A stretch of DNA of 64,000 bases from an uncultured Opitutaceae bacterium (GCA_937902925.1 CALFNN010000080.1:1-64000); one strand, 5' to 3'; positions 856 to 24,156 are shown, counted from the stretch's first letter. The notes: generated by a model not told the origin, from the letters alone. A program made the numbers and translations.

Positions 856-968
856 GGAAAGAAGGACGACCAGTCAGCCATAAACCGGCGGGGTAACGCA
901 CGAAAAAACGGCGGCCGGGACGCGGGGTCCCGGCCGGCCGTGGCAATACGAAGGGTCGCTGATGGCGC

Positions 969-1376
969 CTATGCCAGGTGCTTTTGCAGATCGAGCAGCA
1001 GTTCCTGCTCGGCGGCGGACACGTCGCCATCGGCGGCGAAGATTTTCCGGCAGAGCGCCATGGTGCGGGCCTTGGTGGCGGGCGTCGCGAGGCGTTCGGC
1101 GACCACGGCGAGGAAGTCCGCGCGGGAGGCGGGCGATTCCTTCACCGCGCGGGCGTTGGCGATGGAGCGGGCGGTGAACGCGTCGTAGGAGACGCGCGGG
1201 TCCCAGTTGAACTGGTCGACCGTGCGGGCGATGATCTCGTCCTCCTTGGCCGCGATGCTGTTGTCGGCATACATGCAGTAGAAGAGCAGATCGACCATCG
1301 CTTCGCGCTGGACTTGGGTCAGGCCGTCCTCGCCGAGTTTCGAGGAGCTGAACAGTTTCTTGAAGAGGTTTTTCAT
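969..1376 (-). CDS. TerB-like (tellurite-resistance TerB / DjlA-N-like) domain protein
   Basis: 135 aa ORF with a TerB-like helical pattern (DLLFYCMYADNSIAAKEDEII...AEQELLLDL). Lies 13 nt downstream of the flotillin gene. Confidence 0.55.
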   Translation of the reverse strand: MKNLFKKLFSSSKLGEDGLTQVQREAMVDLLFYCMYADNSIAAKEDEIIARTVDQFNWDPRVSYDAFTARSIANARAVKESPASRADFLAVVAERLATPATKARTMALCRKIFAADGDVSAAEQELLLDLQKHLA

Positions 1377-1388
1377 TGGGACGACAGG

Positions 1389-2906
1389 CTACGCGGAAGG
1401 CTTGTCGGGTTTCACGGCGTTTTTCAAGGCCGGCACCTGCTCGAGGAGTTTTTCGAACTTCACGCCGGTGAGCGCCTCGAGCACGGGCGGGAGCTGCGAG
1501 AGGATGGTGGTGACGTCGCCGGTGAGCTTGCTGGCGCCGCCGCCGGGACCGGAGCCGCCGCTGATGATGACCATCTTCTCCGTCTTCGCGAGCGGCGCGG
1601 AGATCTGGCCGGCGATCTCGGGCAGCGCCCGGACGATGAGCTCGATGATGGCGGCCTGGTTGTATTCCTTGAAGGAGTCGGCCTTCTTGCGCATCGCCTC
1701 GGCGGTCGCGAGGCCCTGCGCCTCGATGACGGTCGCCTCGGCGAGACCGCGCGCCTTGTTGGCGTCGGCCTCGGCGGTGCCGGTGGCCTTGACGACATCG
1801 GCCTGGGCGAAGCCGGTGGCCTTGGTGGCGGAGGCGGCGCCCGCGGCCTCGGTTTCAAGTTGGAATTTACGCGCGGTCGCGAGGGTCTCGACCTTGTAGC
1901 GCTCGGCGTCGGCGGGTTTTTGCACGTTGGCCTCGAGTTCGCGCTGCTTGCGGAGGATTTCCTGCTGCTGCAGCTCGATCTGCTTCTGTTTCTCGATGAT
2001 GCTGACCTGGACTTCCTCCGCCTTGACGAGCTGGTTGGTCTTGAACTTCTGGAGATCGTAGGCGAGTTCGGACTGGGCCTTCTTCTGGTTCACGGACGCG
2101 TTGTAGTCCTGGACATTCATCTGGTAGTCGCGCTGCGCCTCGGCGATTTTCGAATCGGCGGCGAACTTGGCCTCCTGGCCGGCTTGGGAGGCCTGCGCGG
2201 TGCGGATGGCGGCGTCGCGGTCGGCCTCGGCCTGGGCGATCTGCGCGTCGCGCTTGACCTGCGCGATGCGCGGCTTGCCGAGGGCGTCGAGGTAACCCTG
2301 CGTATCGCGGATGTCGCGGATGGTGAAGCTGACGATGCTGAGGCCCATGTTGGCCATGTCGCCGGCGGCGACTTCCTGGACCTTCGAGGCGAACGCGTCG
2401 CGGTTCTGGTAGATCTCCTCGACGGTCATCGTGCCGAGGATGGCGCGCAGGTGGCCCTCGAGGGTCTGCATCGCGATGTTCTTGATGTCGTCGACGCCCT
2501 TGCTGAGGAACTGCTCGGCGGCGGTGGCGATGGAGATGTCGTCGCCCTTGACCTTGATCTGCGCGACGCCATCGACCTTCACCGGCACGCCCTTGCTCGT
2601 ATAGACCTCGGGCGTCTGCACGTCGATGGTGAGGAGCTCGAGCGAGAGGATGTCGGCCTTCTCGACAACGGGGATGATAAACGTGCCGCCGCCCTTCACG
2701 ACGCGGAAGCCGCGGATCGAGCCCTTGCCGTCGGCGCCGACGATCCGGTGCTGGCGCCCGGAGACGATCAGCACCTCGTTGGGGCCGACCTTGGTGTAGC
2801 GGCTGGCCCAAACGATGAGCAGGAAGAATACGACAATGACGATGCCGACGACGGCGATGGCGCCGATGCCGAAGCCGCCGAGTTGAGCGAGGAGTGCAGG
2901 GTTCAT
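1389..2906 (-). CDS. flotillin-like SPFH/band-7 protein (YqiK/FloT type)
   Basis: N-terminal TM helix, SPFH domain (GGGTFIIPVVEKADILSLELLTIDVQTPEVYTSKGVPV), long EA-rich coiled-coil flotillin repeats. Start trimmed to the internal Met (MNPALLAQ); the upstream 39 codons of the ORF are Arg/Ser-rich run-on. Confidence 0.85.
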   Translation of the reverse strand: MNPALLAQLGGFGIGAIAVVGIVIVVFFLLIVWASRYTKVGPNEVLIVSGRQHRIVGADGKGSIRGFRVVKGGGTFIIPVVEKADILSLELLTIDVQTPEVYTSKGVPVKVDGVAQIKVKGDDISIATAAEQFLSKGVDDIKNIAMQTLEGHLRAILGTMTVEEIYQNRDAFASKVQEVAAGDMANMGLSIVSFTIRDIRDTQGYLDALGKPRIAQVKRDAQIAQAEADRDAAIRTAQASQAGQEAKFAADSKIAEAQRDYQMNVQDYNASVNQKKAQSELAYDLQKFKTNQLVKAEEVQVSIIEKQKQIELQQQEILRKQRELEANVQKPADAERYKVETLATARKFQLETEAAGAASATKATGFAQADVVKATGTAEADANKARGLAEATVIEAQGLATAEAMRKKADSFKEYNQAAIIELIVRALPEIAGQISAPLAKTEKMVIISGGSGPGGGASKLTGDVTTILSQLPPVLEALTGVKFEKLLEQVPALKNAVKPDKPSA

Positions 2907-2943
2907 GATAGGGTTAAGCTGGAGGGTTGAAAATCGCAGGGCG

Positions 2944-4323
2944 TCAGTCGGCCGTGACGTAGAATTGCGAGCCGACGACGCGCGTGATGCGGACCGCGCC
3001 GCCGTTGGGATGGGCTGCACCATCGTCGGCGCGGGCGGGCGCGGAGTAGCGCGTCCCGGATTGGACGTAGGCGATCTCGCCGACGCCGTCGGCAGCGATG
3101 GGCGTGATGACGGTGGCGTTGCAGCCGATCACATCGGCGATGCGGCCCTCGCTCGACGCCTGGGTGTTCCGGAAGATCGTCCGAAAAAGCCAAAAAACGC
3201 CCGCCGCGACCGCGAAGCCGCTCAGCGCGGCCAGTGGCGCGCTGACCCACGGGCTGCGGGTGGCATCGATCTCCGCGTAGATCATCCCGAAGCCGCCGAA
3301 CGAGGTGATGAACGTCGCGATGGTCGTCGGGCTCAGCGGCGCGAAGCCCGGCATGTCGCTGGCGCCGCCCCCGCCCTCGGCGTGGCCCTGGGCGTGACCA
3401 CCGCCGCCGTGCCCGGTATCAATGCTGTGCGCGATGTCGCCGTGCCCGCCGAGGACGTGGGCGCCGAGCGCGCTGATCAGCGTGAAGAGCAAGCCGACGC
3501 CGAAACACACGGAGTAGACAAGGAACGCCGTGGTCCCGGTCTGGGCGTCGACCTCCGCGGTGGCGAAACCCGCCGCACCGACACCGGCGAGCGAGAAGAC
3601 GCCCGACGGGACCTTGTTCATCGCGAAAAAATTGGAGAACTTCGCGCAGATGCCCGCGCCTCCGCCCATCGTGGCGGAGTGGGCGAGCGCGCCGCCGGCG
3701 AGCGCGGCGGCGAGGCCGGCGGGCGGCGCCGCGACGGCCTGCGTGGAGATCGCGAGGCCCAGGGCGGCGGCGGTGGACGTAACGCCCTTCTGCGCGAGCG
3801 CCTGCCGGAGTTTTTCGAGCGCACGCTCGGCCCGCATGCGCGCGGAGCTCTCGCCGATGCCGAGTTTTTTGCCCATCTCGGCGAAGGGCTGATCCTCGAA
3901 GTAGCGCATCAAGATGGGCGTGCGGTCGTGTTCGGCGAGATTGCAGAGCGCCGAATCCAGCAGCGGCCGGAGTTGTTCCCAGTCGGCCTCGTGGGCGGAG
4001 TCCCGTTCGATTTCTTCCATGGTGTGTGCCTCCTGTTCGCGGGCGGTGCGGCGCCGGCGTTCGCGCAGCGCCTTGAGCGCCGCAAACCGGGTGCTGGTGT
4101 AAAGCCAGCTCGTCAACACCGGCCGGTCGGCCAGCTCGCCCGCCTTGCGGGCGAGGTCGATGAAGACGCCCTGGCTGACATCCTGCGCGAGCAGCATGTC
4201 GCCGCCGACCTGACGCAGGGCGGCGGAATAAACGAGCCCCGCCTTGCGCCGAACGAGTTCGGTGAAGGCCGCTTCCGACCGCTCGCGAGCGTAGCGGCGG
4301 AGGAGTTCGGAGTCGTCGTTCAT
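2944..4323 (-). CDS. ECF sigma-70 factor (regions 2 and 4) fused through multi-TM segments to a C-terminal NfeD-like OB-fold domain
   Basis: Single uninterrupted frame. aa 1-190 carry sigma region 2 (LVYSAALRQVGGDMLLAQDVSQGVFIDL) and region 4 HTH (QPFAEMGKKLGIGESSARMRAERALEKL). Then 3-4 hydrophobic helices and a His/Gly-rich loop, then a YuaF/NfeD-type beta-barrel (GRIADVIGCNATVITPIAADGVGEIAYVQSGTRYSAPARA...VRITRVVGSQFYV). Start placed at MNDDSELLRRY (cat at 4321-4323). Confidence 0.7.
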   Translation of the reverse strand: MNDDSELLRRYARERSEAAFTELVRRKAGLVYSAALRQVGGDMLLAQDVSQGVFIDLARKAGELADRPVLTSWLYTSTRFAALKALRERRRRTAREQEAHTMEEIERDSAHEADWEQLRPLLDSALCNLAEHDRTPILMRYFEDQPFAEMGKKLGIGESSARMRAERALEKLRQALAQKGVTSTAAALGLAISTQAVAAPPAGLAAALAGGALAHSATMGGGAGICAKFSNFFAMNKVPSGVFSLAGVGAAGFATAEVDAQTGTTAFLVYSVCFGVGLLFTLISALGAHVLGGHGDIAHSIDTGHGGGGHAQGHAEGGGGASDMPGFAPLSPTTIATFITSFGGFGMIYAEIDATRSPWVSAPLAALSGFAVAAGVFWLFRTIFRNTQASSEGRIADVIGCNATVITPIAADGVGEIAYVQSGTRYSAPARADDGAAHPNGGAVRITRVVGSQFYVTAD

Positions 4324-4622
4324 CGCAGGGTTACACCCGCCGCGGAGGCAAATGGCACACGAGCCGGGTGATATTCGGAAAACCCCCGGGGCCGGGAGGC
4401 GGTGTCGAACCGGGATGCCGCCAGTCCAAGCCGGGCGGACCGGGGGCGGATCGGACGGGGGAGCGGAGGGTTCATCGGACGCCACGCATGGAAGCAGGTC
4501 CGCCGGATTAAATCACTTATAATGTCGCCGGAAATTCCCAGCGCCGCAGCGATCTTGCAAAAGCCGCGCCGCCACCGCCGCGGCTTGCCAAGCCGTGGGC
4601 GACTCCGCACGCTGCCGCCACC

Positions 4623-5093
4623 ATGGATTCCCACGAGGTGATGAGGGACGTGTTGAAGAAGACCAGCGCGAAGCAAATCGCCGCCGAGATGGGCCTGTCG
4701 CTGTCGTTGATCTACAAATGGGCGGAGCCGCCCGTGGATGAAAGCGGCAGCGGCACCGGCAGTCCGCTCGACCGCGTGGGCCAGCTCATCCGCATTTCCC
4801 GCGATGTGCGCGTGGCGCAGTGGGTGTGCGAGCAGGCCGGCGGATTCTACATCCGGAATCCGAAGAACCTGCCGACGGGCCAGCCGCTGATCCCGATGAC
4901 CAACGACATCGTGCACGAGTTCGCCGACATGCTGGCGACCATCGCCACGTCCTCGGCGGACAACGTGATCACGCAGGAGGAGGCGGAAAAAATCCGCGCG
5001 CGCTGGGAGGAATTGAAGAGCGTGACGGAAGGATTCGTCACCGCGGCGGAGAGCGGAAATTTCGGGGCGACGAAGGAGCTGGAGAAAAAATAG
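4623..5093 (+). CDS. hypothetical HTH domain protein, divergently transcribed from the sigma-NfeD gene
   Basis: 156 aa with an HTH-like segment KQIAAEMGLSLSLIYKWAE. No confident family assignment. Confidence 0.5.
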   Translation: MDSHEVMRDVLKKTSAKQIAAEMGLSLSLIYKWAEPPVDESGSGTGSPLDRVGQLIRISRDVRVAQWVCEQAGGFYIRNPKNLPTGQPLIPMTNDIVHEFADMLATIATSSADNVITQEEAEKIRARWEELKSVTEGFVTAAESGNFGATKELEKK

Positions 5094-5160: not shown

Positions 5161-5790
5161 ATGAATCCATCGTTTGACGCCGCGTTTTGGAACGACCGCT
5201 ACGGCGGCGACGGTTATGTCTACGGCACATCGCCCAACGAATTTCTCGCGTCGGTCGCGGCGGATGTTCCCGCCGGTCCCGTGCTCTGCCTCGCCGAGGG
5301 CGAGGGGCGTAACGCGACTTTTCTCGCCGGACGCGGTCATGCGGTGACCGCCGTCGACCAGTCGTCGGCCGGCCTCGCGAAGGCCGGCGCGCTCGCGCGG
5401 GGGCGCGGCGTGCCGCTCGCGACCGTCGTGGCCGACCTCGCGGATTTTGCGATCGCGCCGCAGGCGTGGTCGGGCGTCGTGGCGATCTTCATGCACCTGC
5501 CGCCGGCACTGCGTCGGGCCGTGCTCGCGCGCGCGGCGGCCGGGCTCCGGCCGGGCGGCGTGTTCGTGATGGAGGCCTATACGCCCGCGCAACCCGCCTA
5601 CGGCACTGGCGGCCCGCGCGACGTCACCCTTTTACCGACACTGGCGGAGCTCCAGGCGGAACTCGGCGACTTGGAGTGGCTGGTCGCCCGCGAACTCGTG
5701 CGTGACGTGCGGGAAGGCGGCGGTCACACCGGCAACTCCGCCGTCGTGCAGGTGCTCGCCCGTCGGCCGACGAGCGTCGACCGGCGCTAA
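5161..5790 (+). CDS. class I SAM-dependent methyltransferase (TehB/TPMT-like)
   Basis: Motif I VLCLAEGEGRNATFLAGRGHAVTAVDQS and post-I acidic residue; typical ~200 aa small-molecule methyltransferase. Confidence 0.8.
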   Translation: MNPSFDAAFWNDRYGGDGYVYGTSPNEFLASVAADVPAGPVLCLAEGEGRNATFLAGRGHAVTAVDQSSAGLAKAGALARGRGVPLATVVADLADFAIAPQAWSGVVAIFMHLPPALRRAVLARAAAGLRPGGVFVMEAYTPAQPAYGTGGPRDVTLLPTLAELQAELGDLEWLVARELVRDVREGGGHTGNSAVVQVLARRPTSVDRR

Positions 5791-7852: not shown

Positions 7853-8160
7853 TCACTGCTCTTTCGCGCCGCCGTCGTAGCGGATGGCGTGGCCGACGGC
7901 GAGCAGGGAGTTGTTTAGGAAGGCGAAGCCTTCCGGGTGAGAGGTGATGGGTGACGGGTGATGGGCTTCATCCTGACCTTTGGCCTCAGACCCCTGACCT
8001 ATGGCCTGGCGGATGAACGCATCCGCCAAATACCAATCATATTTGTCGGGCTTCGTGGTGCAGACGATCACTTCGTCGCCGGGTCTGAGGAGGGCATCGA
8101 CAAAAGCCTTGGCGTCGCGGCGGGCGGCGGTGGTTGCGGGCCGGCAGTCTTACGGGCCGA
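7853..8160 (-). pseudogene. 3'-terminal remnant (duplicate) of the DUF1016_N-thermonuclease gene
   Basis: ~300 bp is ~90% identical to 8912-9217. The 72-aa ORF MIVCTTKPDKYDWYLADAFIRQAIGQGSEAKGQDEAHHPSPITSHPEGFAFLNN... mirrors the C-terminus of the full gene at 8912-9973. No N-terminal part is present. Confidence 0.65.
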
Positions 8161-8911: not shown

Positions 8912-9973
8912 TCACTCCTCCTTCGTGCCGCCGTCGTAGCGGATGGCGTGGCCGGCGGAGAGGAGGGCGTTGTTGAGGAAGGCGAAGCCTTCCGGGTGAG
9001 AGGTGATGGGTGAAGGGTGATCGGCTTCATCCTGACCTTTGGCTTCAGACCCCTGACCCATGGCCTGGCGGATGAACACATCCGCCAAATAACGATCGTA
9101 TTTGTCGGGCTTCGTGGTGCTGATGATCACGTCGTCGCCGACGCGGAGGAGATTTTCCACGAAAGCCTTGGCGGCGCGGCCGGCGGCGGTCGAAATCTCC
9201 GGACAGTCGATCCCGCGCAGGCGCAGTTTCAACTGGTGCGTGAGGCCCGGCGCGACCGCGAGCGCGACGGCTAGCGTGTCGCCGTCGACGATTTTGCGGA
9301 TGGTGGCGACATAGGTGAAGAGCTGGTCCTTCGTCGCATGTTCCACCTTGCGGACGCCGTCCTCGTTCAACCGCACGATGTCCGTGGTCGTGAGCTTGGA
9401 GGCGGGGCCGAGCGAGCGGTAGAATTTGAACCCGAGATCGACCTCGGGGCCGTCGCCCAGATCGACGATCGGGTGCAGCCCCGGCGTGCCGAAGCGGGGC
9501 GTGAGGAGTCCGACGGGTGGGGCCGGCGCGGCGTCGTCCGAGGCGAGCGCGATGGCGTTGTAGGAGCGCACGCGCGTTTCGAGATCGGACTTGGTCCAGT
9601 TTTTCCGGATGGCCTCGGCTTCGAGCGTTTTTCGCTGCGCGGGGTCGGCGATCTGGATCAGCAATTGGTAGTGCGACCAGATCAATTTGGCATCGCGATG
9701 CCAAATCGGGTAGCACCGGTGGAACTGGGCGCACTGGCGCAGCGAGCGTTCGCTGATGTGGATGTCCGCAGTGAGTTTGGTGTAAACCCGGGCGCCGTAA
9801 TCGGCGCGGTCGCGAAACAGCAGCACGTGTTCGTTGATGAGCCGGCCGGTCTCGTGATAGGTGCCGAGCCACGCGCGATCGATTTCCCCGCGTCCCTGGA
9901 CGACGACGGCGATCACCGCATCGCGCAATTGCGCGTAGGTCTTCGGCGTCGGGGTGAGCGCGCGCGCGGGCAT
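8912..9973 (-). CDS. DUF1016_N (YhcG N-terminal) domain fused to staphylococcal-nuclease-like (SNase/thermonuclease) domain
   Basis: N-terminal half: YHETGRLINEHVLL...ADYGARVYTKLTADIHISERSLRQCAQFHRCYPIW...IWSHYQLLIQIADPAQRKTLEAEAIRKNWTKSDLETRV (YhcG_N pattern). C-terminal half: VDGDTLAVALAV...LRLRGIDCPE...AAKAFVENLL..VIISTTKPDKYDRYLADVFI (SNase fold). The first 211 codons of the ORF track entry are Arg-rich run-on; start set at MPARAL. Confidence 0.7.
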   Translation of the reverse strand: MPARALTPTPKTYAQLRDAVIAVVVQGRGEIDRAWLGTYHETGRLINEHVLLFRDRADYGARVYTKLTADIHISERSLRQCAQFHRCYPIWHRDAKLIWSHYQLLIQIADPAQRKTLEAEAIRKNWTKSDLETRVRSYNAIALASDDAAPAPPVGLLTPRFGTPGLHPIVDLGDGPEVDLGFKFYRSLGPASKLTTTDIVRLNEDGVRKVEHATKDQLFTYVATIRKIVDGDTLAVALAVAPGLTHQLKLRLRGIDCPEISTAAGRAAKAFVENLLRVGDDVIISTTKPDKYDRYLADVFIRQAMGQGSEAKGQDEADHPSPITSHPEGFAFLNNALLSAGHAIRYDGGTKEE

Positions 9974-10054
9974 GGTGGAGGCGGGACGGCGGTTTTTTGG
10001 CCGATCCACGTCGGAAAGTCGCGCGGAAACTGGACGACGCGGACGGGATCGAAG

Positions 10055-10150
10055 AGCACCAAGCACCAGTGAAGCACCAACGTTCAAAACTCCGATGACG
10101 GGAGCTTGAAGTTTCTCTGGGGTCTGGACGTTGATGCTTGGAGTTTTCGG
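10055..10150. repeat. intergenic palindromic repeat element (CCAAGCWCC-unit family), copy A
   Basis: caccaagcaccagtgaagcaccaa...ttgaagtttctctggggtctggacgttgatgcttggag, shared with 11247-11352 and inverted at 36468-36600. Confidence 0.7.
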
Positions 10151-10194
10151 CACGCCGCGCTGCCCCGCCAGACCTCGACGGCGGCGCCGACGCC

Positions 10195-11118
10195 CTATTT
10201 CTTCGGTGCCTGCGCGTCGTAGAATTCCTTGATCAGCCCCATGATTTGCGGGAGTTGCGCCTCGGCCTTCACCGCGTTCAACTGGGACTCCGACAGGAAC
10301 GACTGGGACTGCGCGATCACCTGGTTCCAGTCGGTCGTCTGCGGGGTCACCCTGCCGCCGCTCTGGTAGGTGCTGTTGGCGTTGGCGATCACCTTCAGGA
10401 GTTGATTCGATTGGTCGGGGGTGAATGGCCGGAAAACGGACATCGACGAGATGTCGGTCACGGTCCGCTCCAAGGGTTGCAGGCGGCGGAAATCCTCGAA
10501 GCTCTTGAACCCCTCGTCGCCGAGGATCTGTTTGATCTCGTCGTCCTTCAGGTTCGGGTCGTCCGGATGAACGCTGTTTGGGGTGAGCGCCAGGCTGTTG
10601 ATCCATTTCTCGGCGGTGGCGGTTTCCATGGCGTCGATTTGATCGGCCGTGAGCACGCCCGACCGGATGAGAGAGGAGAAATTCCGCTCAATCTGGGCCC
10701 GGCCGAGGTTCATCAGCATCGGCTTCACCTGGGCACCGTAGGCGGCGACGAAAGCCTGGCCGTCCGCCAGCGATTGCTTCCGCGCGGCTTCGGCGGCGGC
10801 TTTGCCGGGAGCCGGCATCGCGGGCGGACGGGGCCCCGGCGACACGGCGGCGGTTTTTGCCGCCTGCACCGCCGCCTCCTGTTCCTTGAGCTGGGCCTGC
10901 AATTGCGTCTGCCCCTGCTCCGCGGCGCGGGCCCGCCCCGCCATTTCCTGCAACTGTGCGAGGTCGGTCTGATGGACACGCTCCGCGGCGGTCACGGAAT
11001 CCTCCGCCTGCCTCGCCTGGGTAAACTCGTAGACGGCGATCCCAACGGCCAGGACCGTCAGAATTCCAAACAGCTTTAGTAGCGGCGAGGCAGCCCGTGG
11101 GCGATCGACAGGGTTCAT
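10195..11118 (-). CDS. hypothetical membrane-anchored coiled-coil protein
   Basis: N-terminal TM helix (LLKLFGILTVLAVGIAVYEF) then Q/A-rich coiled coil; no family recognised. Confidence 0.5.
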   Translation of the reverse strand: MNPVDRPRAASPLLKLFGILTVLAVGIAVYEFTQARQAEDSVTAAERVHQTDLAQLQEMAGRARAAEQGQTQLQAQLKEQEAAVQAAKTAAVSPGPRPPAMPAPGKAAAEAARKQSLADGQAFVAAYGAQVKPMLMNLGRAQIERNFSSLIRSGVLTADQIDAMETATAEKWINSLALTPNSVHPDDPNLKDDEIKQILGDEGFKSFEDFRRLQPLERTVTDISSMSVFRPFTPDQSNQLLKVIANANSTYQSGGRVTPQTTDWNQVIAQSQSFLSESQLNAVKAEAQLPQIMGLIKEFYDAQAPKK

Positions 11119-22013: not shown

Positions 22014-22901
22014 TTATCCGCGCGGGGTCGTTGCCAGTTCCCTGGCGATTTGTGCGACCGCGTCGGGCGGCACCACGAGTTGCCAATTTGGTCCGTCCCG
22101 GTGAAGGGACAGATAGGTCACACTCGTCCGTTGATCATCAGGTGCGCGCGGCGGCTGGCGCTCGGGATGGGCGGCGCGGTCTGCCTTCTGTTGCAAGGCC
22201 AGGCGCGCTGTTTCTTCCCGACCCAGTGGCAGCGGCGTTTCAGGTTGCGGCACGTCGGGCGCGGCGGCTTCTCCTGGCATTGGCGGACGCTGGAGGAACA
22301 ATCCGACGGTCGCGTCGTTTTCGCCGCGTTGATTGAACCACACGAGCTGAGCCTCACCGAGAGGGATGTTCTTAATCGTGAATGCGGAGATCAGGTCCTC
22401 CGGCGTCGGATAAAGGGCGCGCGTCTCCGCCGGCAATTTCGCCAATAGCGAATCGGCGGCCTGGCGGGTGTCGTCGCCGACCGATAGAAGCCGCCTCAAG
22501 GTGAAGACGTCGCCGCCCGCGGCTGCCCAGAGCGCAGTCTCGACCGCGGCGTGCGGCGTGGCCTGGCCGCGATTCTTCCATTCGCGAGCGGGAGTCCACT
22601 GGCCGATCGGAAGCGCCGCCGGGGGCGTTGACGGCGTCGCGGGCGGCACGTCGATTTCATTTTGCAGTCGGGCGGATTCGGCGGTGGCGCGGCGCTGGGA
22701 CTCGAGTTCGCCGGCGGCCGGTTGCAGTGCGCGCAGCCGGTCCCGCTCGCGTTGCAGGTCGAGCAATTCCCGCTGTTGGCCGCGCTGTGCGTCGATCGCA
22801 GCAGTTAGTTGGCTGGTCGAGAATCGCTCGATGACCCAGGTCGCGGCGAGCGCGACCGACACCGCGAGAAGCAGGATGGTTTTCATCGGCTGCCAAACCA
22901 A
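22014..22901 (-). CDS. hypothetical membrane-anchored protein
   Basis: N-terminal TM helix, coiled-coil segment; downstream partner of the sigma-fusion gene at 22883-24100 and overlaps it slightly. Confidence 0.5.
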   Translation of the reverse strand: MVWQPMKTILLLAVSVALAATWVIERFSTSQLTAAIDAQRGQQRELLDLQRERDRLRALQPAAGELESQRRATAESARLQNEIDVPPATPSTPPAALPIGQWTPAREWKNRGQATPHAAVETALWAAAGGDVFTLRRLLSVGDDTRQAADSLLAKLPAETRALYPTPEDLISAFTIKNIPLGEAQLVWFNQRGENDATVGLFLQRPPMPGEAAAPDVPQPETPLPLGREETARLALQQKADRAAHPERQPPRAPDDQRTSVTYLSLHRDGPNWQLVVPPDAVAQIARELATTPRG

Positions 22902-24100
22902 GAGAAGCCCATCTTCGGATCCGGCGTGGCATCGCTTTCGACGACCACGTGGCTGATCCGGTTCCGACGCGCCTGGTCGATCGCGTAGGCGAGTTGGGAG
23001 AATTCCGAAAGTCCATTGATCCCGAGCGAAGCCCCGCCATCCGGCGCGGTCTGCTGCAGCGCCTTTAAGCGCGCAAGGAACTGCTGCAGATTCACCGGTT
23101 CGGAGCCCCAGCGGAGAGTGCCATTGGCCTGCACCGTGACGGTCGCCTGCGCGGGTGGGTTTAGGGCGGACGCCGTGGCCGTGGGTGCGACCTTGACGGA
23201 CGCGGCCGGGCGCTCCGCGGCGAGGCGGCGCAGATCGTCGGCTTCGGCGACGCGCCGGGCGAGCTCATGGTTTTCCGCCTGCAAGGCTGCGCCCGTGCGT
23301 TGCCCGGATTGGAGCTGGGCGAGTTCGGTTTCGAGTTGGCGGTTGACGCGGTGTTGGTGGGTCACGGCAAACGTGCCGAGGAGCAGCGCCGCGCCGACGG
23401 CGAGACCCGGGCCGAGCAGCGCGGCGAAACCCGAGCCCGCGCCGGCGGCCGCTCCCTGGGCCAGCGCGTGACCGGCGATCCGGGTCGCAAGGCCGGCGGG
23501 CGTGATGCCGGGCGCGAGTTCAACCAGCGCCAGCGTCAGCATCGCGGTCGTGGACGTGACGCCGCGGCGGGCGAGTCCGACGCGCAATTTTTCGAGTGCG
23601 CGGTCGACACGTTTGCGTGCGGCCTCTTCGCTCAGCCGCAAGGCGGCGCCCACTTCGGCGAAACTCCGTTGCTCGAAAAAGCGCAGCGCAATCGCCTCGC
23701 GATCCTCGTCGCGCAGGGTGACGATGGCTTCATCCAGCTCCGGACGCAGGTGGTTCCATTCGGGCGGCGGCGTCGAATCGTCGAGGAGCGTTTGCATGGT
23801 GTGGGCGGCGGCTTCGCGCGCCTTGCGGCGGCGTTCGGTGCGCACGACCTCCGCCGTGGCGACGTGCGTGCTGACGTAGAGCCAGCCGGAGAGACTCGCG
23901 CGGCCGGAGAGGGATGCGGCCTTGCGCGCCAGATCGGCGAAGACTTTTTGGGTGACGTCCTCGGCGAGGTGCGTGTCACCACCGACGCGGCGCAGCGAAG
24001 CGGAATAAACAAGGCCGACATGGCGGTGGACCAATTCGGCGAAAGCGGCCTCCGAGCGATCCTCGGCATAGCGGCGGAGCAGTTCGGCGTCGTGGGTCAT
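22883..24100 (-). CDS. ECF sigma-70 factor fused to TM helix, coiled coil and ExbD/TolR-like C-terminal domain
   Basis: MTHDAELLRRYAEDRSEAAFAELVHRHVGLVYSASLRRVGG (region 2), LRFFEQRSFAEVGAALRLSEEAARKRVDRALEKL (region 4), TM segment, coiled coil, then VTVQANGTLRWGSEPVNLQQFLARLKALQQ...ISHVVVESD resembling ExbD/TolR periplasmic domain. First 150 codons of the track ORF are Arg/Pro run-on; start at cat 24098-24100. Confidence 0.65.
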   Translation of the reverse strand: MTHDAELLRRYAEDRSEAAFAELVHRHVGLVYSASLRRVGGDTHLAEDVTQKVFADLARKAASLSGRASLSGWLYVSTHVATAEVVRTERRRKAREAAAHTMQTLLDDSTPPPEWNHLRPELDEAIVTLRDEDREAIALRFFEQRSFAEVGAALRLSEEAARKRVDRALEKLRVGLARRGVTSTTAMLTLALVELAPGITPAGLATRIAGHALAQGAAAGAGSGFAALLGPGLAVGAALLLGTFAVTHQHRVNRQLETELAQLQSGQRTGAALQAENHELARRVAEADDLRRLAAERPAASVKVAPTATASALNPPAQATVTVQANGTLRWGSEPVNLQQFLARLKALQQTAPDGGASLGINGLSEFSQLAYAIDQARRNRISHVVVESDATPDPKMGFSWFGSR

Positions 24101-24156
24101 GATGGATTGCCCAATGGCTGCCGCCGGGATGAAAACCGGACAAAAAAATCGCGAAA

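Follow-up and report, generated by a model that had tools for sequence, protein, structure and literature searches.

A membrane-tethered ECF sigma factor fused to the NfeD partner of flotillin in an Opitutaceae bacterium

Described systems and the sigma-NfeD gene

Extracytoplasmic function (ECF) sigma factors anchored in the membrane by an extension of their own chain, and short NfeD proteins encoded next to flotillins, are the closest described counterparts of a gene in the DNA analyzed here, a stretch of 64,000 nucleotides from an uncultured Opitutaceae bacterium (GCA_937902925.1, CALFNN010000080.1:1-64000; hereafter the window). The gene product can be classed both as an ECF sigma factor tethered to the membrane by an extension fused at its C-terminus and as an NfeD extended at its N-terminus. 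Proteolytic release, with Prc and RseP, has been shown for IutY of Pseudomonas putida, a sigma/anti-sigma hybrid (ECF243) (PMC8999054), and activation by proteolytic release has been proposed for ECF52 (SCO4117) (PMC8999054; PMC7826278). As in these two proteins, in ECF48/53 and in ECF263 (with its extension of 5-7 transmembrane (TM) segments), the window protein combines ECF sigma2-sigma4 and TM segments in one chain, with no separate anti-sigma gene. In contrast to the tethered ECF factors, it shows no recognizable anti-sigma domain (FecR, zf-HC2 or other) on the stretch from sigma4 to the membrane, its extension is a polytopic NfeD with a predicted cytoplasmic oligonucleotide/oligosaccharide-binding (OB) fold and no periplasmic sensor domain, and it belongs to another phylum. 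The single TM helix and large extracytoplasmic domain of the IutY type are not found in the window protein but are found in its TonB_C, ExbD and CarboxypepD_reg paralogues.

On the NfeD side, YuaF-FloT of Bacillus subtilis, YqiJ-YqiK and YbbJ-QmcA of Escherichia coli and NfeD-FloA of Staphylococcus aureus share with the fusion the three TM helices, the OB-fold and a gene position just before the SPFH/flotillin gene. These short NfeDs (YuaF, YqiJ, YbbJ and S. aureus NfeD) have neither the sigma module nor the linker nor the additional helix, TM0, that precede the NfeD part of the window protein. A precedent for N-terminal fusion is provided by the long NfeDs (NfeD1b, for example PH1510; YqeZ type), which carry a ClpP-like protease, a functional domain that faces the cytoplasm, on the N-terminus of the NfeD membrane region and OB-fold and are encoded in an operon with an SPFH protein (PMC2636767). 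The serine protease fused there cleaves the stomatin partner, whereas the part fused here is a transcription initiation factor. A link between an ECF sigma factor and flotillin also exists in B. subtilis, where sigmaW, an envelope-stress ECF factor, drives yuaF-floT-yuaI (yuaFGI) (PMC2636767). In that case the regulator is a separate protein, whereas here the regulator and NfeD form one chain. SigmaW is held by the anti-sigma factor RsiW and released by PrsW/RasP proteolysis. Membrane-held transcription factors freed by intramembrane proteolysis also include SREBP/ATF6 and pro-sigmaK (SpoIVFB); SREBP, which responds to the lipid state of the membrane, is anchored by two helices that form a hairpin around a short luminal loop. 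These last cases are analogies only, with no homology to the fusion. Neither a sigma-NfeD fusion nor the wider sigma-linker-TM-X family to which its N-terminal half belongs was found described in the literature searched, in agreement with the first-pass annotation of this DNA, which knew of no such fusion.

The fused gene occupies 2944..4323 on the minus strand and encodes 459 amino acids plus a stop codon in one open reading frame (ORF); the identical protein was called on two contigs. The chain comprises, in order, the ECF sigma module (sigma2 and sigma4), an Ala-rich linker, TM0 and a short NfeD of three TM helices and a C-terminal OB-fold. The minus-strand frame is free of stops over 2944..4485 in the ORF listing, and a longer product starting from a GTG at 4485 was considered and ruled out. 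The N-termini of the orthologues read M-x-DD-x-ELLRRY, which favors the ATG at 4323, and the same ATG was chosen in the independent gene calls on the two contigs. A start at 4485 is further disfavored because the promoter-like motif at 4331-4359, discussed below, would then fall inside the ORF. That the single frame is an assembly or frameshift artefact joining two genes has virtually no chance of being correct. The contigs carrying the identical protein belong to two different sample accessions, and the uninterrupted frame, including TM0 and the linker, is kept in 78 full-length clusters from many metagenomes and in six GTDB species, which refutes the artefact. The complete ECF sigma module that had been proposed to lie in frame with NfeD is therefore borne out, as both sigma regions score above the Pfam cut-offs and no stop interrupts the ORF.

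Sigma region 2 (residues 23-92; 4048..4257, minus) matches Sigma70_r2 (PF04542) with 31.4 bits against a Pfam cut-off of 24. Region 4 (residues 122-174; 3802..3960, minus) matches Sigma70_r4 (PF04545, residues 126-174) with 36.7 bits (cut-off 24.1) and r4_2 (PF08281) with 35.6 bits (cut-off 25.7), and the NCBIfam ECF model TIGR02937 spans residues 19-176 with 70.5 bits (cut-off 42.9). Only sigma regions 2 and 4 are present and regions 1.1 and 3 are absent, as is typical of ECF (group 4) factors. The best sequence and fold matches in the PDB are likewise ECF sigma factors (RpoE, SigE, SigL, SigK, AlgU and SigW). The AlphaFold2 model has a mean predicted local distance difference test (pLDDT) score of 67.5, with 79-94 in the sigma part and 76-92 in the OB-fold; region 2 scored 84-97 over two AlphaFold runs and itself returned ECF sigma factors in Foldseek. 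Searched against the PDB with Foldseek, the model retrieved the ECF sigma factors Mycobacterium tuberculosis SigE, SigK, AlgU, sigmaE and SigW with E about 1e-5, in matches that include holoenzyme structures. Among the fused orthologues, characteristic residues of regions 2 and 4 do not vary. Identity among these orthologues is 70-76% in the sigma part, 58-75% in NfeD and 57-59% in the linker; the sigma part is thus constrained at least as much as the NfeD part.

The C-terminal half is more divergent from the available models. PF01957 matches the C-terminus of the window protein weakly (20.3 bits, cut-off 29.1) and is matched by 19 of 20 close relatives, at best with 1.1e-5, and the NfeD_TM model PF25842 matches the exact window protein in its precomputed annotation. 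A PDB sequence search with the single C-terminal half yielded nothing relevant, and profile and fold searches were needed. The profile of relatives gave B. subtilis YuaF, the FloT partner, as the top PDB sequence match (E = 0.03). In Foldseek the model matched YuaF (2k14) with E = 6.9e-4, a TM-score normalized to target length (TMt) of 0.75 and a root-mean-square deviation of 2.9 Å; PH1510-C (3wwv) and 3cp0, each with TMt 0.79; and YbbJ in the QmcA-YbbJ complex (8z5g) with E = 3e-3 over 126 aligned columns. The OB-fold, the partner-binding domain (residues 395-458; 2950..3141, minus), has five strands in the model, located at residues 402-458 with pLDDT 76-92. The C-terminus is accepted as NfeD on the basis of the modeled fold, the membrane region and the gene context. 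Of the architecture expected from the first-pass annotation, sigma regions 2 and 4 and NfeD_TM were recovered by profile models and the TM helices by hydropathy and the AlphaFold2 helices; PF01957 stayed below its cut-off, and the OB-fold was recovered through structure.

The Ala-rich linker (residues 181-237; 3613..3783, minus) is kept in paralogues with unrelated C-terminal domains and is probably cytoplasmic. TM0 (residues about 238-259; 3547..3612, minus) follows the invariant K237 and is homologous to the single TM helix of the TonB_C and ExbD paralogues. The NfeD membrane region (3163..3534, minus) contains three TM helices at residues 264-291, 332-351 and 358-387, as delineated by PF25842, the AlphaFold2 helices and hydropathy. 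Standalone three-TM NfeDs begin right at TM1. Hydropathy alone marked residues 262-294 and 358-384 as strong helices; the signal was weaker at 196-214, 241-259 and 331-350. The Ala-rich segment at 196-214 was rejected as a TM helix, as it would place the TonB_C and ExbD domains of the paralogues in the cytoplasm. TonB_C, ExbD and the other partner domains of the paralogues are extracytoplasmic; the paralogues must therefore cross the membrane an odd number of times, and the helix after the M-x-K motif, TM0, would be that crossing. The predicted topology would then be sigma (in), TM0, a loop of about 8-12 residues (out), TM1, the His/Gly-rich loop (in), TM2, a short loop (out), TM3 and the OB-fold (in), with both extracytoplasmic loops likely to be about 12 residues or shorter. 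This arrangement agrees with S. aureus NfeD, whose OB-fold is cytosolic and binds FloA (PMC11222466).

The His/Gly-rich loop (residues 293-330; window 3334-3445, minus) lies between NfeD TM1 and TM2. Its motif H-A-E...M-P-G-F is kept in the standalone NfeDs of the clade, and the loop, although present as first reported, is therefore not a product of the fusion. The H-A-E and M-P-G-F motifs may form a metal- or partner-binding site.

The flotillin gene (1389..2906, minus) starts 37 nt downstream of the fused gene, with no predicted terminator in the gap. It encodes 505 residues of the FloT/YqiK type with an N-terminal TM helix and matches Band_7 with 115.3 bits and Flot with 31.3 bits in Pfam. 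Its score of 520 bits against NCBIfam FloT is below the equivalog cut-off of 700; the protein is therefore a flotillin, but its equivalence to FloT is not established. In all seven fused loci flotillin lies downstream in the same orientation, as it also does in every unfused locus with stored sequence past nfeD; across all related loci it is 77-92% identical. The fusion is the first gene of a unit that runs on into flotillin, and the NfeD-flotillin pair with nfeD directly upstream, proposed at the outset, is indeed present. By analogy to S. aureus NfeD-FloA (PMC11222466) and QmcA-YbbJ (8z5g), the NfeD part would be expected to bind flotillin physically.

Sigma family, promoter-like motif and origin of the fusion

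At about 45 loci the same sigma module is joined to other, longer C-terminal regions. These paralogues are 50-62% identical to the window protein over residues 1-180, often as far as about residue 265. Throughout the family, an Ala-rich linker (GVTSTAAAL...AAPAGLAA...) is followed by M-x-K and one hydrophobic helix, and then by a variable domain, X: TonB_C, ExbD/TolR, SLBB/Poly_export or CarboxypepD_reg repeats, and in the window protein NfeD. The paralogues with TonB_C, ExbD or CarboxypepD_reg have a single TM helix and a large extracytoplasmic domain. A second member in the window, a sigma-TM-ExbD/TolR-like gene of 404 residues (22889-24100, minus), has a sigma part 55% identical to that of the fusion. 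It has no adjoining ExbB or TonB gene, and the idea that family members always lie beside the partners of their machine was accordingly rejected. The family is large and apparently an undescribed group of single-chain, membrane-anchored sigma factors of Verrucomicrobiota.

A two-block promoter-like motif, TGTGCCATT-N12-GGCGGGTGTAA, precedes the fused gene at 4331..4359 (minus) and ends 7 nt before the ATG; the block GGGTGTAA lies at window 4331-4338. A related motif was seen before nearly every family gene (loci L011-L082, for example L044 5950-6000; further positions are L011 5305 and L037 3230), with the consensus TTTTTGTGCGGTTTT-N9-GGCGGGTGCTATAA, also written TGTGCGGTTT-N10-GGCGGGTGCTATAA, and the first block 38-43 nt before the ATG. 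In the fused genes the motif reads TGTGC(C/G)(A/T)TT-N12-GGCGGGTGTAA and starts 35-36 nt before the ATG, and a distant subfamily (43-49% identity) has TGTCGGATT...GGCGGCGATAT instead; the motif variant thus changes with the sigma subfamily. A loose pattern gave 97 matches in 847 kb of loci, compared with about 53 in shuffled sequences. Fifty of the 97 fall within 70 nt upstream of the 69 family starts (50/69 genes, 35-43 nt before the ATG), so that the excess over the shuffles about equals the number of matches at family starts. Good copies also occur before lipoprotein/TonB_C-like genes upstream of two sigma-TM-TonB_C genes. Within the 64-kb window the search patterns matched only the copy of the fused gene itself; a motif of the form TTTTTTTGTCCGGTTTTC...GGCGG, read by eye, lies at about 24117-24142 ahead of the sigma-ExbD gene, with its first block 42 nt before the ATG.

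In our reading, blocks spaced by about 16 nt, at this distance from the ATG, suit the -35 and -10 elements of an ECF-type promoter with a leaderless or nearly leaderless mRNA. The motif is probably an autoregulated, nearly leaderless ECF promoter and a marker of the regulon, and its position and co-variation with the sigma subfamily suggest that the fused sigma factor reads it. The possibility that flotillin was an ancestral target of the sigma family was considered and rejected, as the family motif was not found before unfused nfeD genes. These have instead a sigma70-like CTTGCT-N17-TTACT, a 5' untranslated region and a Shine-Dalgarno sequence. As the fused gene has the motif and unfused nfeD genes lack it, the fusion brought the putative promoter of the sigma family ahead of nfeD-flotillin.

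A search of 5.8 billion clusters yielded the 78 full-length clusters mentioned above (447-494 residues, 58-100% identity), all of which carry sigma r2, sigma r4 and NfeD_TM, with invariant residues in both halves of the fusion. Those with a named source are all labeled Opitutus, Opitutaceae or Verrucomicrobia. The group of Opitutaceae that carries the fusion is one of soil and freshwater bacteria. In a survey of GTDB with one genome per species, full fusions were found in six species loci (L003-L008), all of Opitutae/Opitutaceae and each followed by a flotillin at 87-92% identity. Standalone nfeD genes of about 190-200 residues precede flotillin in about 30 loci (Pedosphaera, Limisphaerales, Chthoniobacteraceae and some Opitutaceae); they correspond to residues 267-459 of the fusion, with 56-65% identity. 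The NfeD half was also used as a profile query against 1.84 billion representative proteins at 50% identity. Among its 150 best matches were one full-length fused representative (P0015) and a 312-residue fragment with part of sigma region 4 (P0082); the remainder of these 150 were nearly all of about 300 residues or fewer, being standalone NfeDs or shorter fragments. The rarity of the fused state, together with the wide occurrence of standalone nfeD, indicates that the fusion is a young, lineage-specific invention.

Neighbor-joining trees were computed without bootstrap for flotillin, for NfeD and for the two combined. In these trees every fused locus belongs to one Opitutae clade, together with three unfused loci. 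Two of the latter (L013 and L016) are basal in the clade and the third (L012) lies beside the fused L007; in trees without bootstrap, loss in L012 and a second fusion event are not separable. The fused state is derived, a sigma-linker-TM-X member having been joined to the N-terminus of a resident nfeD in one Opitutae lineage. A further unfused locus, L083, encodes at 4001-4846 a standalone four-TM NfeD (P0087) with an N-terminal RPRPAR stretch and a TM0-like helix. No sigma remnants were found in the L083 locus, which has no CII-like gene of the kind described below and in which the downstream genes are flotillin and sucC, as in the fused locus L084. This NfeD could be a precursor or a remnant of the fusion.

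Proposed mechanism and competing explanations

There is continuing debate over what is sensed or signaled by bacterial flotillins and their NfeD partners. A prediction that follows from the sigma-NfeD fusion is that transcription reads out the state of the flotillin-NfeD assembly, and the motif-driven promoter would be a built-in reporter of this read-out. In the model considered here, a sigma factor held by flotillin would be freed upon a change in the membrane or in flotillin and would drive its own operon; our judgment of this model as a whole is evenly balanced between acceptance and doubt. The OB-fold and TM helices would assemble with flotillin as in other NfeD-SPFH pairs. The sigma domain would thereby be kept at flotillin assemblies, where RNA polymerase could not use it productively, until a change in the state of the membrane or of flotillin freed it. 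The likeliest route of release would be cleavage in or next to TM0 or in the linker, with unmasking in the absence of cleavage as the alternative; proteolysis is plausible by analogy to IutY and SREBP. The freed sigma factor would drive its own promoter, and hence nfeD and flotillin. Such a loop would amount to a membrane-stress circuit that is self-contained and positively autoregulated, and would correspond, within one protein, to the control of yuaF-floT by sigmaW in B. subtilis.

A farther-reaching version is less likely than not. Flotillin assemblies would gate a transcription switch in which the sigma factor is present at about 1:1 in NfeD-flotillin complexes and withheld sterically, and perturbation would lead to SREBP-like cleavage at TM0 or the linker and to induction of nfeD-flotillin and other targets. 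If true, this would be the first direct signaling output described for a bacterial SPFH scaffold, and the sigma-linker-TM-X family would represent a general Verrucomicrobiota wiring of sigma factors to components of envelope machines (TonB, ExbD, Wza-like, NfeD) with no separate anti-sigma factor. With the fusion itself, the range of extensions seen on ECF sigma factors gains a partner that is polytopic and faces the cytoplasm, and the N-terminal NfeD fusions, which so far comprised the ClpP-type protease, gain a transcription factor. The predicted transcriptional read-out of the flotillin-NfeD assembly makes the fusion of interest for work on flotillins and on ECF sigma factors. Its distribution is narrow, however, and the wider family, which with its motif merits attention of its own, may matter more than its sigma-NfeD member.

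Several observations weigh against release of a flotillin-held sigma factor. In the sigma factors known to be freed by regulated intramembrane proteolysis (RIP), a single TM helix is followed by a large periplasmic domain that takes the first cut. In the window protein, only about 8-12 residues separate TM0 from the first of three more helices; extracytoplasmic loops of about 12 residues or less are very short for a site-1 cut. TM0 itself was assigned from homology and hydropathy. Between sigma4 and TM0 (residues 181-237, about 55 residues) neither Pfam nor NCBIfam gave a match to an anti-sigma domain. A second AlphaFold run, on residues 1-266 with a paralogue-rich alignment, asked whether the linker docks on the sigma part; linker pLDDT was below 60 in both runs, with their different alignments, so that autoinhibition by the linker is unsupported. 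The QmcA-YbbJ complex contains 26 copies of QmcA, and NfeD and SPFH protein are 1:1 in this 26-mer, a ratio that would imply a large number of sigma domains in each assembly. Another factor could also be the one that reads the motif; most paralogues have a TG-N-TATAA that resembles an extended -10. Finally, a CII-like activator gene, described below, is retained divergent from most fused loci, and control of flotillin need therefore not have passed to the fused sigma factor.

The short outer loops and polytopic anchor, which fit poorly with the logic of site-1 and site-2 proteases, would be better accommodated if the sigma factor were never released and were active while tethered, recruiting RNA polymerase at the membrane and transcribing its own operon there under the control of NfeD-flotillin conformation or assembly, much like the membrane-bound regulators of the ToxR and CadC type. 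That Pfam finds no anti-sigma domain, and that the motif sits directly on the operon of the sigma factor's own membrane protein, also agree with such an arrangement. However, the single-TM paralogues with large periplasmic domains resemble RIP substrates such as IutY, some motif copies lie before other genes, so that the sigma factor would have to reach several loci, and no sigma factor is known to us to function as an integral membrane protein. Activity in the tethered state thus seems decidedly unlikely. Less plausible still, and in our view quite improbable, is that the sigma-like domain is no longer a sigma factor and serves as an interaction or decoy module, comparable to the sigma-like domain of PhyR, or is a decaying relic. 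The high stoichiometry expected with flotillin would suit such a role, and transcriptional activity of the domain is so far a prediction. Yet both sigma domains score above the Pfam cut-offs, and the model resembles ECF sigma factors solved within holoenzymes. Characteristic positions of regions 2 and 4 do not vary, conservation among fused orthologues is no lower in the sigma part than in the NfeD part, and the family-specific promoter-like motif is retained before the fused gene.

A third explanation dispenses with signaling between flotillin and the sigma factor. NfeD would be an interchangeable anchor or sensor, the regulon would be unrelated to flotillin, and the fusion would be neutral or merely convenient for co-expression. 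In favor of this view, C-terminal domains of many unrelated kinds occur in the family; the fusion is recent and narrowly distributed; the unfused locus nested among fused ones suggests that it is dispensable; and the CII-like activator gene has been kept. The partner, however, is no random membrane protein but the resident nfeD of a conserved nfeD-flotillin pair. The 78 clusters, some with identity as low as 58%, preserve the full architecture and share invariant residues in both halves, and the OB-fold, through which NfeD binds flotillin in other systems, is retained in full. An uncoupled fusion is for these reasons unlikely, if somewhat less so than a sigma factor working in the tethered state.

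Neighboring genes and further observations

Downstream of flotillin, the last gene of the unit (969..1376, minus) encodes a TerB-like protein of 135 residues (Pfam TerB 36.3 bits, cut-off 24.4). It is followed by a strong terminator-like hairpin (912..936, minus) with a 10-bp stem, 9 G-C pairs and a T run. A TerB-like homologue after flotillin was otherwise found only in close relatives of this genome, namely in L002, which has the same sequence, and in L041; it is absent from L003-L008 and L084, and sucC follows flotillin in the other loci. The TerB-like gene noted in the first-pass annotation is therefore real but is not a conserved neighbor, being absent from most fused loci. Anti-phage defense models gave no match for any of the four proteins.

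The divergent gene upstream of the fusion (4623..5093, plus), first described as encoding a helix-turn-helix protein, is present and encodes a CII-like transcriptional activator of 156 residues (phrog_101 38.9 bits; Pfam Phage_CP76 27.3 bits). The CII-like gene is divergent from nfeD-flotillin in five of the six fused GTDB loci and also in many unfused loci, across several Verrucomicrobiota orders; it is probably an ancestral local regulator that was kept after the fusion. A conserved intergenic element at 4492..4523 (strand unassigned), ATTATAAGTG-N16-CTGCTT, has a reverse complement that contains TATAAT. Read by eye in the fused loci and in unfused Opitutae L012, L013, L016 and L083, the element has the consensus ATT(A/G)TAAGTG-N16-20-CTGCTT, with TATAAT or TACAAT in the reverse complement. 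The CII-like gene and the intergenic element may represent an ancestral regulator and its putative promoter or operator.

Beyond the CII-like gene, an S-adenosylmethionine (SAM) methyltransferase gene (5161-5790, plus) matches TehB (tellurite resistance) weakly, with 18.6 bits and below the cut-off; the occurrence of a TehB-like match a few kb from a TerB-like gene is probably a coincidence. The gene calls of L001 beyond the methyltransferase include GreA-like, DUF2200 and RibD_C genes. Elsewhere in the window, a 72-residue ORF (7853-8071, minus) closely resembles the C-terminal 70 or so residues of a 564-residue ORF (8912-10606, minus) about 1 kb away, the shared end being ...TTKPDKYD.YLAD.FIRQA.GQGSEAKGQDEA.HPSPITSHPEGFAFLNN.LL..GHAIRYDGG.KE. 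The shorter ORF looks like a duplicated gene fragment.

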